A stretch of DNA of 64,000 nt from a virus. Its lineage: Duplodnaviria > Caudoviricetes. Below, one piece after another: positions 2,551 through 15,802 of this stretch. How positions within the stretch are numbered: the first letter of the stretch is position 1; every line of letters starts with the position of its first letter. Below the pieces are notes generated by a model. The model worked only from the letters and a program-made list of their open reading frames with translations, was not told the DNA's origin and did not search any database. Position numbers and translations under genes: made by a program. Location of the stretch: positions 150,258-214,257 of the IMG/VR virus record IMGVR_UViG_3300011008_000004; one strand, 5' to 3'.

Positions 2551-4569
2551 TTATAAAACGATAATACCTTGAGATAAATACGCTCTATTCCAATCTTCTT
2601 CACTTATCTCTTCTTTTTCTTGAGCAATGCTATTATACTAACCCATTGTTCTCTGTAGTTCTTCTTCGAATTGTCTATTCATCTCAGCGACCTAAGATGA
2701 TTGACTTGCAGAAGAACTTACTTGTTTAATAATATCAAGTGTCTCACCGTAATCAAATGCATATTGCTCTGCAAATTTGCTAGCTGTGAATACTGATCCA
2801 CATACTGCGTCGAGTACGTCCTTGTGTCCATTTGCAGGGTGATCTACTTTACCACTATTTATATTTCTTTCAATCTAAACAAATTCATCAAATAATCGTT
2901 CAGATTTATACATTACAAATCTTTTCTCATACACAGAAGATTGTAAATACTAATATGGTTTGCATATATGATCACTATCAACTCTATCAACTGATAGAAT
3001 TTCACAATCAAAACCTTCTGCTATTAGTTGTTGTCCAGTGTCATAAGATTGGAATGTATCGTATGTAATTTTCTTTATCTTAAATCCGACATTTTTAAGC
3101 CATCTTATAAAATTTCTATTCTTTTCAAATGAAATCTATCGGCCTTTAGGTGCTTTTATACTTGTACTAAAAGCTAATCTAAAACTTAAATCTCTTGCCT
3201 ATTGATTTGGATCTGTACTAACTTTTTTACCTATTATCCAAGTTCCAGCAATACCAGTCATATCCCCACTTACTGACATATCTAAATGAATAAATAAAGG
3301 TTTACTCATTAGTTCTTTTGGAATATTCTGCATGTCAAAATAGTTATAATACTAATCAACATCTTCAGAACCATTACCCGTTTCTATTATGTCTGGAAAT
3401 GGGTTTTTAAAGTCAGGATTTATAGCTTCTGTAACTCTTTCAGCTGACATGTACTTATTAACAGATGCACTTGATATACCAGCGTAATCGCATAGCATTC
3501 TCTCTAAGTCTTCTAACGCTTTTGCTTTAAAATCTATAGGAGCTGCTATTACTCTATAACCTTTATCTTTATAGAATTGTATATCAGCATCATTAGGTAT
3601 AACCAAACTTGCCTTATACTTATCACCTACGCCAATATAAAATATTTCATTACTATATGTGCCTTTAGGTTTAACTTCCCAAACAGGTTTATCTACAACT
3701 AAAGTATTACTGCCTTCTGTTTCCTATAATGTTTTTATATACTCTTCCATAAATGATTGCTCACTACGTTTAGAAGAAGCAACACATAACATTGTAGGAT
3801 TTTTACCCTCATGAACGAATCTGGTTAACATGCCGCCTATAGCTGTATCAATCATATTCTTTGCTTTTTCTTTCTGTTTATCTATATCTTGATTTCTAAT
3901 AAAGCTGATTTCATCAAAAAATGCAAAAAATACAGGTTTACCAATTACATCGTCTGCTTGAGATCCAATAACTATATTTATTGGATCAGGAGGAACCCAG
4001 TAAGGTTGATTATTTCTCTAAGTTATACTTCCTTTTGACATAAACCAAGGAGACATCTATATTGTTTTCTAAAACTTACTAATAGCGATCTCTTCTGATA
4101 GCGCTAATTTAATATTCATAAAAGCAAATATTATTTTTTCAGTAAGTTTTATATGATAATAAGATAATGGATCTTTTAAACACATTAAACGATACATTAA
4201 ATATGTGCCTACTGCACCACAAGCCACTTCAGATTTGCCAATACCACGAGCGCCAGACTCAAGTAATGTGTTATAATCAGTATCTATATTATTAGGAAAT
4301 AATTTCTTTAATATATCTAACCAAAAAGGATACAACTTTAATTTGCCACTAGCATCTTTCCAAGCTTTTCCTAAGAATCTATCATCTGTTAGAAATGTTT
4401 CTATGTCTACAGGGATTTCTTTAAAGTCGTCATAAAGTAAATCATCAAAAGTCTATGACTAACCTTTATCTGACATCTCTCCTAAAATCTACATAACCAT
4501 AGATTTTTCTTGTTCAGATAAATCATTTAAGTTATTTAATTGTGATATATCTAGTTCATTCGACATCAT
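2551..4569 (-). CDS. terL: Terminase large subunit (TAG-recoded)
   Basis: One frame interrupted by TAGs; Walker A GARGIGKS, Walker B FAFFDE, RNase H-like nuclease motifs FIHLDMSVSGD and HKDVLDAV. Confidence 0.9.
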
Positions 4570-7643: not shown

Positions 7644-9674
7644 TTATTGAATTTCGCCATCGTCTATAACTATATCAATAACTGTATAGTTTGTAGCACC
7701 ATTTAATTTTACTTTTAATTGATTGTTACCAGTACCATCTGATATATATGTTATATCATCAGCTGCTTTTGTAATAGTACCATTACTATCTATGCTTAAG
7801 CCGTTACCATTGGTAACTTTAACAGCTCCAGCTGTTCCAGTTGAGCCTAAAGCCATTGCAACGACACCATTACTATCTATGCTTAAGCCGTTATTATTAG
7901 TAATTTTAACTGTACCTAATGTTGAAGTAGTAGCTTTAAACGCTGAGTTAGAATGATTAGTCCAAGTAGGTGCTGTATTTGCGCCATTGGATATTAATAC
8001 TTGATTAGATGATCCACTTCCAACAGGAGCATAAATATTGAATCCGCCAGTTATACCTAATTCATAGCCATAACGTCCAGTACCAAAATCATTTTTAGGT
8101 GTTAAAGTGAAATTTACATCAGATCCAGTATCTGCAGTACCATTTATTTTAATTGCAGGGGCTGTACCATTATATCTAAATTCAGCGACTGGGATTTTTA
8201 CATCATCAGGATTTTTATCATCTGAATATGCGATATTTAAAGTCTGTTTATGATCAGCGTAGTCATTTTCAGTAGTTTCTATTTTTGATATACCACGTCC
8301 ATTGATTATTTTAAATACTTTTGTATCTTTTACATATTTACTACTATCATCTTTTTGATCGTACTCAATATCATACTCATTCACACCAGAAGATGCATCA
8401 TTGTATGTGCCATTAAGTTTAACTTCTTTTATACCACGTCCAACAATATTATCTAAAGTTATATCCAAACCAAATTTAAGATTTGCTTCGTCTAAATAAA
8501 CAGTTGTACTACCTGTAGGACTCCAAAGATTTGTTCCTGGATTCGCTACATTATATGTTACATCTACATCTCTAGCTATTGGAAGGAAATCACCCCTAGT
8601 AAATGAACCAGTTGGACCGGTTGGGCCTGTTGCACCTTGAATACCCTAACCACCTTGAGGGCCTTGTGGACCTGTAGCGCCTGTGTCACCTTTTACACCT
8701 TGTTCGCCTTGAGGACCAGTTGGACCTTGAATACCCTGAGCGCCAGACATGTCTGTTAAAAATGCAAAGTGTGCGGTATCTTTATCTAACAATGTGGTAT
8801 TATCTTTTCTTACATATAATCTACTATTTTCTTCTTGTTCAACAGAGTTAGCTATTAGAACGAATTTACCTAGATTCACATTAGCATAATCAGCTTCCAT
8901 CAATTCAACAGAAGAGTATGTTTTATAAATACTAAATCCTTCGCCTTTATCACCTTTGTCGCCTTTGGGACCAGTAGGACCTTGATCACCTTGAATACCT
9001 TGAATACCTTGAGGACCTTGAGGACCAGTTGCACCTATATCGCCTTTTTCACCTTGAGGTCCGGTTGGGCCAGTAGCACCGGTAGCGCCGGTATCACCTT
9101 TTGCTCCAGGAGCGCCATCTTGGCCAGGAACGCCTTGAATACCTTGAATACCTTGAGGACCTGTAGCTCCAGTTGGACCTGTAGCACCATCTTGGCCATT
9201 TATGCCATCAGCTCCAGCGGGGCCTGTTGGACCGGTTATGCCATCTTGCCCATCTCTACCGTTTGTACCAGGAGCTCCAGTCGCGCCTGTTGCACCAGTA
9301 GCACCTGTAGGTCCTGTTTCGCCTTGAATACCTTGGCCACCTTGAGGACCTTGAGCTCCTGTAGGACCAATTTCACCTGCAGGACCTGTTGGACCTACTT
9401 CGCCTAATTTTTTCCACTCAAAATTAGTTGGAGCTACAGTTATAGCGCTTTGTATAAAATTGTCTAATATATATAAGCAGCAATCCTCTTGAACAGACAC
9501 TATCATACCTTTATATATAGGATAGTATATGTTACCAGCACTTACAACTGCCCAAGTGCTTGCCGAACTAAGATCAGATATACTATTAACAGTTTGTCTA
9601 GCGTCAAATGGACTAGCTTGTGTTAAATCATACGAAGTATCAATAGTTAGGGCAAATTCATCTAATTTTCCCAT
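7644..9674 (-). CDS. Collagen-like fibre protein (676 aa)
   Basis: Long Gly-X-Y tract; ORFs 8646..9674 and 7644..8468 join across TAG 8646 (GPQGG*GIQG versus [10 protein letters not shown] earlier in the same protein). Confidence 0.85.
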
Positions 9675-9701
9675 GTCTATATCTCCTTAAATGTTGCGAT
9701 G

Positions 9702-10439
9702 TTATATCTACTTTGTAACTATTATGCATAGTTTTAAATTTTGTAACTATGAATTAGCTACACTTATGCCTATATCACTTAATGTATATTGTGCAAAACC
9801 ATCAATTTCAGTACGTATAAGCATCTATTCAATTGTTTTTTTACCTGAACCAAAAGGCTTATAGGAATCTGTTAAACTGTCATATAACATAATGCCTATA
9901 ATTTGCATATTAGAATCTATCTATATATTAAATGCATCTTTAGATAATTTAATATTATAATAACCTTCAGCGTCTACTAATCCGCCTGCATTTAAATCTA
10001 TTTTAAATCCACCATGCTCTAAATCTTTAGATGAAAAATAATACTAATTATTTTCAAGAGGATTTATTTTAACGTTATTTACATAAGCAAATCTATTAGC
10101 AGCGGTGGCTTCTTGATTGTAATACTCATAAATATTATTTACTAAATCACTAACTGTGAAATCAGTTTTACCACTATCGGATAAATAGTTCCACCAAGCT
10201 GTTAAACCTACTTGTTCTTTGCTTATGTTAGTAACTGCTTTCTATAACGAGTCTGTAGTAACAATGCCTGTAATAAGATCTGTAGTAGGCGTTGGCTTAT
10301 AATTAGATCTATAAAGAGCATTTATTAACTCATACGTTTTGGTTTTATCAGATAAACCATACCAAGATTTAAGTTTATAATTTAAGGAGCTAAAATCATC
10401 TACTAATTTTACAAGTGTTCTTGTGTCATTTTGAGACAT
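9702..10439 (-). CDS. Hypothetical virion protein (several TAGs)
   Basis: Track ORF 10242..10439 continues through TAGs to TAA 9702. Confidence 0.6.
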
Positions 10440-10452
10440 TTATAATCCTCAC

Positions 10453-11220
10453 TTAAATTAAATTATTTAAATCAGTTATTGCTGTGCCTATTGTTGTCTG
10501 TAAAGCAGTTACAGTACTCTATAAAGAGTTTATATTATTTTTATTTGTAGTAATTTGAGTCACGCCAACATCAGTAATTCCAGAATTAATAGCATTTAAC
10601 TGATTCGTGGTTAAAGAATCTTGCTTACTACCTAAAGCAGCTTCAGTTTCTGATTTAGTTAAAAATTCACCACCTATAGTGATAAGTCCATCTATTTGTG
10701 TATAAGTTAAACCATTAAATTTAACAGATGTGGTTAGTCCAGCAGCACCAATAGGACCAGTTGCACCAGTAGGTCCAGTAGGACCAGTTGCGCCTGTAGC
10801 GCCTTTTGCTCCGGTCGGACCAACTTCACCTTGATCACCTTTATCACCTTTATCACCCTTTTCTCCAGGTTCGCCTGCTGGACCAACTACTTCACCTGCA
10901 TCTAAAATAGTATCATCATTAAAATGAATAATTAAATGACCATTAATTATTTCTGTAGTAACAATAGACTTATTATCAGCGTCAGCTATAAAAGCATATT
11001 CACCTTCAGCATTCTTTTTGTATGTATAGAATTTATTTTCAGCTTCAACAAAAACTTTTAAGCCGTGATATGCTGCACCGTATTGTTCGTCTATAGATTC
11101 AAAATAAGTTGTATCAGGAACAATAAATCTTGCATCAATTGGATTAGGACCTAAAACTGCAAAGCCTGTAGCAAAATCAACAAAACCTTTAGTTTTTATA
11201 TATTCTCTAAAATCTGACAT
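10453..11220 (-). CDS. Collagen-like fibre protein
   Basis: G-X-Y tract; reads through TAG 10519 to TAA 10453. Confidence 0.75.
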
Positions 11221-12790: not shown

Positions 12791-12814
12791 AAAGACGTAG
12801 ATATCTACGTCTTT
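12791..12814. terminator. Terminator downstream of the tRNA
   Basis: AAAGACGTAGATATCTACGTCTTT palindrome. Confidence 0.65.
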
Positions 12815-12878
12815 ATTATGTCTTATTACAGACAATCACTATAAATAGTAATGTATTTAGCTATATATTTTATAGTTA

Positions 12879-12976
12879 TGGCTGGGGTGGAGCGATTCGA
12901 ACGCTCACATCACGCTTCAAAGGCGCGCTTCCTACGATTTTAGAGATCGCTTTCTTACCAATTAGAATACACCCCA
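12879..12976 (-). tRNA. Gln-type amber suppressor tRNA (anticodon CUA) carrying a second complete anticodon arm (UUG)
   Basis: TGGGGTG TA TTCT AATTGGTA [AGAA A GCGAT CTCTAAA ATCGT A][GGAA G CGCGC CTTTGAA GCGTG A] TGT GAGCG TTCGAAT CGCTC CACCCCA G CCA; U1-A72 and G73 as in tRNA-Gln; encoded CCA. Confidence 0.9.
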
Positions 12977-12981
12977 ATATT

Positions 12982-13001
12982 TATATATATATATATATAT
13001 A
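12982..13001. repeat. (TA)10 microsatellite immediately upstream of the tRNA
   Basis: 20-nt TA run overlapping the TTGTATA motif and ending 5 nt before the tRNA 5' end. Confidence 0.85.
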
Positions 13002-13019
13002 CAAAATAGAAAGCATAGT

Positions 13020-14225
13020 TTATTTAACTATGCTTTCTCCTAATTTATCTTCTAACCATTTTACATCAATATAGAATTTCTGATTATAAGCTTCTTGATA
13101 ATCTTTTAATTCTTCTATATTTTTATAAGCCTTTTTAAATAATTCTTCGGCTTCTTCATACTTACCTTCCCAACACTTAGCATCAGCAATTATTTGCAAA
13201 GCTTTCCATTCTTTAGTTGTCCAAGGTTGAAGTCTCCAGTCTTCTAAAATTTTAGCATCTTTACTCATATTATCTAAAACTTTATATACTTGTGTGTACT
13301 TACCTTGATAAGCTAACATTTGTGCTAGTCTAATGTACGAATCTATAATTGTTTTATCAAAATTTATAGCCTTTCTAAAGTAAAATTCGGCATCTTCAAA
13401 TAAGCCTATTTCATTATAGTACGTCCCTAACGCGATACAAATAACTGCTCTCATCATAATGTTATTATCATTTATTATTTGCATTCTAGCATAATATTGT
13501 TGTGCATATTTTATCGCATTTTGGTAGTCATATCTAAATGAATACTCTCTTTGTAGATAGAATAGTCCATAGTTATCTGTGGGATTCTCATCTACTCTTA
13601 ATTGTAATAAGTTTAAATAACTTCCTCTAGATTTAGTATGGTCTGGATAATGATGTAAATAAATTTTATTAGAATCTAAATAATAGCAACCTTGATAATT
13701 GTAATTATCTCTATCTAAAGTTAATTCTTCATGAACTGGATATCTCCACTTCCAGCCTTTTGCTTGAACTGCTTTATCATACCAGAATACGCTTAATGGA
13801 TTTCCTAATTCATCATGACTCCAAGCATATTTATAAAATATTCTATCAAAATTAGGATGTTCAAATATACACTGTCTATAATCGTCCCAGAAATCTTTAT
13901 CTAATATTTCATCGATATCTGTGCAGATTAAAGCATCACAATCTTCTGGAATTAATTTCATAGATTCATTTCTTGCTACATCGAATCTCCATGGTTTGAT
14001 TTCTTGTTCTGCAATTATTAACTTATTTTTAAATTCTGGAAGTTCTTGTTTTTTCTTAAAATATGTGTAATTAGAATCATCTTTTTTAGTAATTAAAACA
14101 GTTATATAGTTTGCTGGCTTCATGCTTTCAAGCCATCTATCTATAAATTCTTCAGGTTCTGATGCACACATTGCATAGCAACATATTTTAACGTCTTGAT
14201 ATGAATTGAAGTTTTTATTTGACAT
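13020..14225 (-). CDS. GT2-family glycosyltransferase with C-terminal TPR repeats
   Basis: WRFDVARNES, DIDE (DxD) and WRYPVHE motifs followed by TPR-like helices. Confidence 0.8.
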   Translation of the reverse strand: MSNKNFNSYQDVKICCYAMCASEPEEFIDRWLESMKPANYITVLITKKDDSNYTYFKKKQELPEFKNKLIIAEQEIKPWRFDVARNESMKLIPEDCDALICTDIDEILDKDFWDDYRQCIFEHPNFDRIFYKYAWSHDELGNPLSVFWYDKAVQAKGWKWRYPVHEELTLDRDNYNYQGCYYLDSNKIYLHHYPDHTKSRGSYLNLLQLRVDENPTDNYGLFYLQREYSFRYDYQNAIKYAQQYYARMQIINDNNIMMRAVICIALGTYYNEIGLFEDAEFYFRKAINFDKTIIDSYIRLAQMLAYQGKYTQVYKVLDNMSKDAKILEDWRLQPWTTKEWKALQIIADAKCWEGKYEEAEELFKKAYKNIEELKDYQEAYNQKFYIDVKWLEDKLGESIVK

Positions 14226-14329: not shown

Positions 14330-15802
14330 TTAAAAAGCGGTTGAAACTGTGTCTTCAGTTATCTGAAAAAGTTTAGCAAGATCGCATATTGTATATATGG
14401 ATGTTTTAGAAGGATCTACACTAGTGTTAGAATCTTTCGTGTAGTATAAGCACATGTCATTCTAATCAATTTTAGGTTTAATGTGAATATCTAATATGTA
14501 ACCTTTACTATTAGATCCGCTTGAATCTAGTATTTTTTTACATCCAAATATATCAGTTATATGATAAGTTTCATATAATTGCACTAATGTTATTTCATTT
14601 CCATCCACTATTTTATTAGGATAAGTGCTATAGAAATACATTGAACCACTGCTAGTCATCCATTCAGGATATGGGGAGCTATTATCAAGAAATTTTAGTA
14701 AAGATATGCTATGTTTATATATTGTTTGAAACATGCCATACTGATAGCCACTATATGGCGTAGATAACGTTAATGATACCCATTGGTTATTAATCATAGT
14801 GCCTTCAATATGCGTAGCGTCTACATATGCCTTAGTAGCTACATCGTTATCTAATACAGGAGTGCCTGCTTGAAATCTTCCTCCATCTCCTCTATACACT
14901 AGTGTCCAAGCTGCTGCGCTTTCAGCCATAGTAGTTGTGCCTTCAGCACCACTAGATGTATGAATATATGCTTTATTTGTGCCACTACCAGTGATCTGCT
15001 TTACATAATTATTATTCGCGTATACTTTAGTTATAAGGTCTTTATCCGCACTAGGACTAGCATTTGGTGCTTCTACGTTGCCATTATCTTTTACTCTTAA
15101 ACCTGTTTTTCTAGTAGGATTATCAGTGCCTATACCTACAACAAATGTAGATGTATTATCTTGTGCGTATGCATTATATCTACCTACTAATGTTTGATTA
15201 TCTTTGCTAGCTCTCAAGCCCTATCCATATAAATTTGTATCATTATAATCACTAACGTTATATCTACCTTGTACATGAATATCTTTCTATCCTGCAGTGT
15301 TTTTAGATAGATCATTGTTATCTCCATCTACAGATGATGTATAAGCATTTATATAGTTTGTAGAACCGCATGCTCTAGATGCGCCGCCATGAATACCCAT
15401 AGTATTATCATTACCTGTTACAAAACTATGGACGCCACTAACATCATTTTTTAGGCCACCAACAATTATATTGCTATTCCTAACTATATTTAACTTACCT
15501 GCAACTAAATTTCTTTTTGCTGAAGCTGTATCAGTATTTGCCTCACCTAATAAAGCTTCACTTTCCCCTAAAGCTTTACTTTGATAATGATCAGTGTCTA
15601 CTATTCCTGAATATTTTAAAACTATAGAATCATTTACATCATTCAAAATATTGTTGTTAACTGCAATTAAATCTTTTAATTGAGTTGTATTGTCACCTAC
15701 ATAGAGTCTATTTGTGTCAGTCTCAAAAAATGGCTATCCTGCACTTAAGATATCATCTGAAGCCAATCTTTGAGCAGACGTCCCACGTCTTAATTGAATC
15801 AT
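14330..15802 (-). CDS. Tail fibre/adhesin with Mtd-N/hyaluronidase-N-like start and YadA-like repeats
   Basis: MIQLRRGT...FFETDTNRLYVGD; joins track ORFs 15287..15646 and 14462..15217 across TAGs; DVATKAYVD neck motif. Confidence 0.7.

Follow-up and report, generated by a model that had tools for sequence, protein, structure and literature searches.

A phage amber-suppressor tRNA with a second, putative glutamine pseudo-anticodon arm

How is a phage tRNA that reads UAG as glutamine loaded with that amino acid when the loading enzyme must come from the host? In the sections of Borges et al. (10.1101/2021.08.26.457843) covered here, how host synthetases charge phage stop-reading tRNAs is an open question, and the code-15 phage papers (10.1101/2021.08.26.457843; PMC10607447; PMC9523058), in the parts covered, have host GlnRS presumably charging the suppressors. 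The locus described here poses the question in an unusual form, as a single tRNA gene holds an amber anticodon arm and, directly after it, an arm tipped with the anticodon loop of tRNA-Gln. On the basis of sequence comparisons across metagenomes, we propose that the extra arm probably lets the glutamine-loading enzyme of the host still accept the tRNA.

A two-module tRNA in a phage that reads TAG as glutamine

The window, by which we mean the whole 64-kb stretch of DNA analysed, forms the final 64 kb of a virus record that is 214,257 bp long and has direct terminal repeats. Its G+C content is about 30%, the minus strand carries its genes, and its structural genes are phage-like and, in a related contig, T4-like (portal, Gp23 and gp13 families). 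With TAG read as a residue, open reading frames of 100 aa or more span 71,334 nt, versus 54,954 nt with table 11, and a terminase-like frame at 2551-4569 holds 14 in-frame TAG codons. When this frame is aligned with 120 homologues (64-81% identity), every one of the 120 has Q at four of the TAG columns; at two further TAG columns, 115 and 102 of them do. Since these columns are glutamine in the homologues, one of which was examined and is encoded by table 11 (P0030), TAG means glutamine, and the two anticodons are indeed, as first claimed for this tRNA, those of the recoded codon and of its amino acid.

Neither a GlnRS or GluRS core, nor a GlnRS anticodon-binding domain, nor a GatB/YqeY domain was found in the 214-kb phage, and so, lacking a GlnRS of its own, the phage must have its suppressor charged by a host enzyme. 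The sole lead to a name for that host, a 2.2-kb contig binned in an Acutalibacteraceae MAG with a GlnRS-type domain, was set aside as too weak. The phage has 11 tRNAs in total, a separate tRNA-Gln(UUG) among them. Outside the window, near the genome start, lies a second amber suppressor, a plain 75-nt Gln-like tRNA(CUA) with G10 and A73 (G000:C1:2606-2680, minus strand); the cluster of nine other tRNAs near it includes the tRNA-Gln(UUG), at 4011-4085. One phage therefore holds both a one-headed and a two-headed amber suppressor. At other loci, too, a 75-nt CUA tRNA abuts the long one (L010 and L035) or stands ~430 nt upstream of it (L056).

The single tRNA in the window is 98 nt long, and ARAGORN places its anticodon CUA at position 34 (Table 1). 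Rfam RF00005 matches it at 54.2 bits (gathering score 29) over model positions 1-71 of 71, aligning the CUA arm as the anticodon arm and leaving a 24-nt insertion in the variable region. With 27 nt and a 5-bp helix, this region is a long variable arm of the kind that class II tRNAs have. The minimum-free-energy fold is a cloverleaf with a fifth hairpin (5-bp stem, 7-nt loop CUUUGAA); the folding energy as such is not significant (z = -1.76). The preliminary description had divided the gene into single copies of the acceptor stem, the D-stem 5' strand and the T arm, plus two 23-nt modules in succession, and every coordinate and letter of that division proved correct, as did the ability of both AGAA and GGAA to pair with UUCU. 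The two modules have 9 of 23 letters in common. Removing either in silico leaves, as had been stated, a normal tRNA of 75 nt, which ARAGORN calls as tRNA(CUA) or tRNA-Gln(UUG).

The glutamine identity elements U1-A72, G2-C71, G3-C70 and discriminator G73 are all present (set of PMC9976931), whereas the 10-25 pair is U10-A25 in place of a pair with G10; the set is that of E. coli GlnRS and may not hold for the host. In the decoding anticodon CUA, U35 is kept and position 36 is A, not G; the second arm carries the full UUG in CUUUGAA. Two other identities were rejected: pyrrolysine, which is merely the label that ARAGORN attaches to CUA, and a class II identity (Ser, Leu, Tyr or Sec), given the Gln-type acceptor, the Q in the TAG columns and the absence of UYUGA from 45 class II controls.

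Table 1. Features of the two-module tRNA gene and its immediate surroundings (positions in the window)
Feature	Position	Strand	Details and basis
Whole 98-nt tRNA gene	12879..12976	-	Encoded CCA at 12879-12881, discriminator G73 at 12882; ARAGORN, Rfam, fold
Acceptor 5' strand UGGGGUG	12970..12976	-	Pairs with 12883-12889; U1-A72, G2-C71, G3-C70 Gln-type
D-stem 5' strand UUCU, sole copy	12964..12967	-	Pairing possible with AGAA or with GGAA
D loop AAUUGGUA with G18 G19	12956..12963	-	Sequence, Rfam alignment
Module 1, decoding arm	12933..12955	-	AGAA (D 3' strand, 12952-12955), A26, 5-bp stem, CUCUAAA, A44
Anticodon CUA in canonical 7-nt loop CUCUAAA of module 1	12941-12943	-	ARAGORN, Rfam
Module 2, putative glutamine pseudo-anticodon arm	12910..12932	-	GGAA (spare D 3' strand, 12929-12932), G, stem, loop, A
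Module 2 stem, 5 bp	12923-12927 with 12911-12915	-	Fold; 5/5 pairs covary
Module 2 loop CUUUGAA	12916-12922	-	UUG at 12918-12920; 7-mer equals real tRNA-Gln anticodon loops
UGU	12907..12909	-	With the preceding A forms the 4-nt variable loop AUGU
T arm	12890..12906	-	Stem GAGCG/CGCUC, loop UUCGAAU
Terminator-like hairpin, 13 bp + T run	13008..13038	-	Ends the upstream glycosyltransferase gene
Terminator-like hairpin, 10 bp + T run	12791..12814	-	~65 nt past the tRNA
(TA) run, ~ten repeats, ending in TATAAATA	12978..13001	-	One base before the tRNA 5' end; possible promoter region

Lying between two terminator-like hairpins, the tRNA looks like a transcription unit of its own. No sigma-70-like promoter was found on the minus strand. 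The motif TATAAATA is counted 37 times against 25 expected, and its copy at 12978-12985 stops one base before the tRNA, so no promoter role is assigned to it. Tail-fibre genes (matches to collagen-like and tail-fibre PHROGs), of which some contain in-frame TAG, flank the locus at 7644-11220 and 14330-15802 on the minus strand, and between them lies a beta-1,4-glycosyltransferase-like gene (13020-14225) without TAG. Local G+C is 0.38 at 8-10 kb, with a second peak of 0.40 at 16-18 kb.

The possibility of a misassembly, raised at the outset together with a check in raw reads, was rejected. An independent public run yielded a 564-nt contig that spans 12845-13298, and thus the tRNA, with 12 changes, of which none is listed inside the tRNA and the listed ones fall in the flank; nine relatives, furthermore, share the layout. 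This contig and the relatives in other metagenomes together exclude both the misassembly and the pseudogene readings. A contig from an RNA run covers 13014-13212 only, outside the tRNA. A horse-gut metagenome contig joins 12819 to 13039 with 144 different letters between, so that in a related phage other sequence replaces the tRNA cassette (12820-13038). BLAST searches with the tRNA or with the surrounding 6 kb found no relatives among GenBank phages.

A family of long CUA tRNAs and a tryptophan counterpart

We searched IMG/VR, JGI/ENA metagenomes and GTDB genomes with a pattern made up of a Gln-type acceptor start, a CUCUAAA loop, a T loop and a long gap, which left the extra arm unconstrained, and obtained 39 distinct long CUA tRNAs of Gln type, 88-98 nt in length. 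Homologues could have had a variable arm with no conserved UUG-type loop, a result named beforehand as one that would count against the reading; instead, 31 of the 32 distinct extra regions carry [C/U]U[C/U]UGA[A/C/G], with U before the triplet in 29 of these 31 and A after it in 29 of 31. These are the same 7-mers as the genuine tRNA-Gln anticodon loops in the family loci (CUUUGAC, CUCUGAC, CUUUGAA and CUCUGAA). Among 45 class II tRNAs (mainly Leu, Ser and Tyr) from the same loci, not one variable region contains UYUGA. A strict-pattern count over IMG/VR contigs gave 18 with long-armed and 9 with short forms, and an exact-loop pattern returned from IMG/VR chance matches alone, in ordinary tRNA-Gln clusters.

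The position of the loop is conserved on one side only. From its 3' end to the T stem there are 9 nt in 36 of 38 distinct members (8 nt in the other 2), whereas the stretch between the CUA stem and the loop varies from 3 to 11 nt across the 38. Nine nucleotides are what five stem positions and a variable loop of 4 nt add up to, and hence give the register of a true class I anticodon loop; in the window tRNA, it is the variable loop AUGU that brings the distance between the UUG loop and the T stem to 9 nt. When the 17-nt CUA hairpin alone is deleted, ARAGORN calls a tRNA-Gln(CUG or UUG) in 27 of 39 members; the same deletion in class II controls gave 8 calls among 42, none of them cognate. At the level of its letters, each family molecule is a CUA suppressor from the 5' side and a tRNA-Gln from the 3' side. 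No more than 2-3 of the 5 flanking positions of the pseudo-loop are paired in 24 of 38 members; as an anticodon stem, this would be weak.

A scan of IMG/VR for Trp-type UCA tRNAs with a long gap gave 11 distinct sequences (L125-L139), on contigs mostly of 100-135 kb. The extra-arm hairpin of all 11 has the loop NU-CCA-AN, in which CCA is the tryptophan anticodon; in 9 of the 11, this loop and the T stem are 9 nt apart, and deletion of the UCA hairpin leads to tRNA-Trp(CCA) calls in 9 of 11. Judging by these features, the Trp/CCA arm of UGA suppressors is a convergent, independent counterpart of the Gln arm.

The full 97-98-nt layout occurs in ten distinct sequences including the window tRNA (alignment A1), the nine others coming from independent metagenomes. 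Selection on both stems had been suggested from the window tRNA alone; in these ten, the second stem is 100% paired with compensatory change at 5/5 pairs, the strongest covariation among the helices, and the acceptor stem keeps 7/7 pairs, 3 of them with compensatory change. UUCU, AGAA and GGAA (12 letters) are invariant in 10/10 members, so that covariation neither supports nor opposes a second fold. In the other stems about three quarters of the columns of A1 vary, and this difference lends weak support to the idea that the invariance of UUCU, AGAA and GGAA reflects constraint. Nearest-neighbour energies, on the other hand, make the canonical fold better by 2.4-3.7 kcal/mol in 10/10 relatives, and the RNAalifold consensus is the canonical fold.

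By inspection of the sequences, the spare D strand (AGAA, then GGAA) is limited to the 97-98-nt members, in which this repeated D-stem 3' strand makes a complete second cloverleaf possible; the others have the second hairpin alone. The 98-nt form, with its full 23-nt repeat and spare D strand, is the most complete version of the design. A D arm of UUCU and AGAA together with CUA is seen in IMG/VR solely in the two-module form. Two real 73-74-nt phage tRNA-Gln(UUG) genes (L142 and L143), found with a pattern that fixed the D arm, have UA-UUCU-AAU(U)GGYA-GGAA as their D arm and GUGU as their variable loop, and through the shared UUCU...GGAA the second fold resembles a bona fide tRNA-Gln. Descent from these genes in particular was set aside: the search fixed the D arm, and the identity of the module-1-deleted core to them is no higher than to other tRNA-Gln genes, so that they speak for the viability of such a D arm in a real tRNA-Gln and not for parentage. 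In two relatives, the two loops differ solely by G36 to A, the supE change. A plausible origin would be an internal tandem duplication of nt 22-44 in a phage tRNA-Gln(UUG) whose D arm is UUCU:GGAA.

Some members and neighbours of the family depart from this layout. The outermost pair of the CUA stem (A1 columns 27 and 43) is A-C or A-A in 7 of 10 members, in effect a 4-bp stem, and G-U in the window tRNA; short anticodon stems are linked to stop-codon reading in the covered sections of PMC13092985. On one metagenome contig, two two-module tRNAs form a tandem pair, L073:476-573 (plus strand) standing 150 nt before L073:724-820. The stems of the former are intact and its loops are CUCUAAC and UCUUAAC, which makes the second triplet UUA and not YUG. 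This tRNA is a paralogue in the course of divergence or else a variant that serves a different purpose. Three 75-nt CUA tRNAs in IMG/VR (L147, L149 and L150) have a UGGGG start and C72, and thus a U-C mismatch at 1-72, followed by G73.

How the glutamine arm may be read

We consider it somewhat better than an even bet that the CUA arm decodes and that the Gln arm, acquired by duplication, gives host GlnRS the glutamine identity, most likely through an arm swap. In the canonical cloverleaf, the CUA arm would occupy the anticodon position and read UAG on the ribosome, and the second arm would protrude where class II tRNAs have their long variable arm. With its CUUUGAA loop, this arm would supply the glutamine anticodon identity nucleotides that are missing from CUA, above all G36, and host GlnRS would then load glutamine efficiently. 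In the arm swap, the Gln arm would stack under the D stem and the CUA hairpin would be pushed out; in the 97-98-nt subfamily, GGAA would make the swapped form a complete tRNA-Gln(UUG) cloverleaf.

Of the three options in the preliminary description, this one, in which one arm serves charging and the other decoding, is favoured because of the conserved YUG loop, the 9-nt register, the Trp/CCA counterpart, the reading of TAG as glutamine and a phage without GlnRS. The term dual-anticodon tRNA that came with it fits as far as there are two anticodon arms, and not in the sense of two decoding anticodons. Nothing was found in support of the other two, a conformational switch that times suppression and processing into two tRNAs.

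The Gln arm would most likely be read after the swap, since GlnRS has to grip anticodon and acceptor end simultaneously. In the GlnRS-tRNA complex, the enzyme comes in on the side of the D arm, and the variable region is exposed to solvent. For an arm that stayed there, the anticodon pocket would therefore be out of reach, and the model needs a rearrangement, which we infer; taken with the fixed 9-nt register, this geometry makes the arm swap the more likely reading mode. The determinants of GlnRS recognition are the acceptor stem, the discriminator, the 10-25 pair, U35 and G36, with effects mainly on kcat and up to 10^5-fold (PMC9976931).

Several observations run counter to the proposed reading, namely the weak flanking stems (24/38), the energetic preference for the canonical fold, U10, the plain CUA tRNA and the paralogue with UCUUAAC. 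As the phage has a plain 75-nt CUA tRNA and supE suppresses without an arm, the arm is not strictly required for suppression. More tentatively, and at rather less than an even chance, we suggest a single tRNA with separate identity and decoding anticodons that would toggle between two stackings, the CCA arm doing likewise for UGA-to-Trp.

The Gln arm might instead work without refolding, as a tethered recruiting arm that docks GlnRS and raises its local concentration or that binds a second GlnRS molecule, on the model of V-arms engineered to carry an aptamer or a pseudo-anticodon. That the canonical fold is both the energy minimum and the RNAalifold consensus would suit such an arm, as would the lack of a spare D strand in most family members and an engineered precedent that acted through an added anticodon-binding domain. 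Docking would not, however, lead one to expect that the distance to the T stem stays at 9 nt when stem length and 5' linker change, nor that GGAA is invariant in a subfamily in which about three quarters of the stem columns are variable. Furthermore, mutations of GlnRS identity elements act mainly on kcat (PMC9976931), from which we argue that the anticodon sits in the pocket of the same GlnRS molecule that holds the acceptor end. We regard docking as unlikely.

A factor other than the charging enzyme could also read the Gln loop, be it an enzyme that modifies anticodon loops, a host T-box or other YUG-pairing RNA, a phage protein or a tRNA-directed nuclease, for which the loop would be a decoy. 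Conservation of the loop as sequence is compatible with any binder, and the Trp counterpart shows merely that the loop follows the assigned amino acid. TrpRS is a class I synthetase, with the anticodon as a main identity element. Gln/YUG and Trp/CCA thus both lead to class I synthetases that have the anticodon as main identity element (for Gln, PMC9976931); no conserved partner gene was found beside the tRNA, between the two terminator-like hairpins, and the true-anticodon register would be left unexplained. On this evidence, a non-charging reader is quite unlikely.

That the second arm is a leftover of duplication, or a structural variable arm of class II type with no sequence-specific role, seems improbable. 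An origin by tandem duplication is plausible and translation tolerates long variable arms (PMC7590224), but neither accounts for a loop that is conserved on a stem wholly turned over with compensation, or for a 3' spacing that is fixed next to a 5' spacing that varies. The independent Trp/CCA counterpart, the motif count of 0/45 in class II controls and a related strain with a differing flank and no listed change in the tRNA argue in the same direction. Alternative processing, by which removal of one module or the other would give a 75-nt tRNA(CUA) and a 75-nt tRNA-Gln(UUG), is very improbable even though each deletion yields a well-formed tRNA: the 23-nt symmetry is missing from most family members, the phage already encodes a tRNA-Gln(UUG) and a 75-nt CUA tRNA as genes of their own, and excision of a 23-nt segment from within a tRNA is not an activity that we know from bacteria or phages.

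Relation to known systems

Full-text literature searches found no paper on a natural tRNA with a second anticodon-like arm, in agreement with the initial impression that no such design had been described; the idea of a 'pocketknife tRNA' appears, in the text covered by these searches, as a citation in unrelated papers only. Phage suppressor tRNAs are a known kind, and the natural pseudo-anticodon arm on a suppressor is, as far as these searches reach, new. If the proposed role of the Gln arm is true, a built-in cognate anticodon arm would be a simple and general answer to how phage suppressors are charged, and the design is present for both known phage reassignments, UAG to Gln and UGA to Trp. 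The tRNA would moreover be the first from nature to show the synthetase one anticodon and the ribosome another, and arm swapping would be a general route to stop-codon reassignment for phages without a synthetase of their own. The separation of identity from decoding is a principle that synthetic biologists have attempted for genetic-code expansion (PMC7590224).

The closest engineered design is that of Mukai 2020 (PMC7590224), in which a 'pseudo-anticodon' within the V-arm of amber-suppressor allo-tRNAs is meant to recruit HisRS fused to a second anticodon-binding domain. [quoted passage not shown] Reference 56 of that paper, given for the pseudo-anticodon arm, is the thrS operator structure, a case of mRNA mimicry, and among the references traced there is no natural tRNA. 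Both systems are amber suppressors with a variable arm tipped with a copied cognate anticodon loop; the engineered one is synthetic, has His identity and uses a fused synthetase, whereas in the natural family the loop stands in the true-anticodon register, 9 nt from the T stem.

In class II tRNAs (Ser, Leu, bacterial Tyr and Sec), the long variable arm serves as an identity element; its loop is short, its linkers are of 1-2 nt, and what is recognised is its shape. These tRNAs resemble the window tRNA in having a fifth helix between the anticodon and T arms and a length of ~90-98 nt, but the latter differs in its 7-nt anticodon loop of another isoacceptor, its linkers of 6 and 4 nt and its Gln-type body. 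Mimics of anticodon arms are found in the E. coli thrS operator, in viral tRNA-like structures and in yeast synthetase mRNAs (PMC9976931). These are likewise hairpins that copy a cognate anticodon loop, and theirs are bound by the matching synthetase; they lie in mRNAs and viral genomes, where they regulate or hijack, and none is the second arm of a decoding tRNA.

The code-15 phages (crAss-like, Lak, phAss-1 and others), in the covered sections of the papers on them, likewise have a phage tRNA with CUA, late-gene TAG at conserved Gln positions and no phage synthetase. A second anticodon-like arm is not described in those sections, and to this setting the window tRNA adds the 23-nt Gln-arm module. 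The E. coli suppressor supE (glnV44) is a 75-nt class I tRNA-Gln changed from CUG to CUA that suppresses without an extra arm. It shares with the window tRNA the Gln-type body with U1-A72 and G73, and its single G36-to-A change is the very difference between the two loops in two of the relatives. In supE, however, G36 was lost outright, whereas the two-module tRNA retains an intact Gln anticodon arm beside the mutated one.
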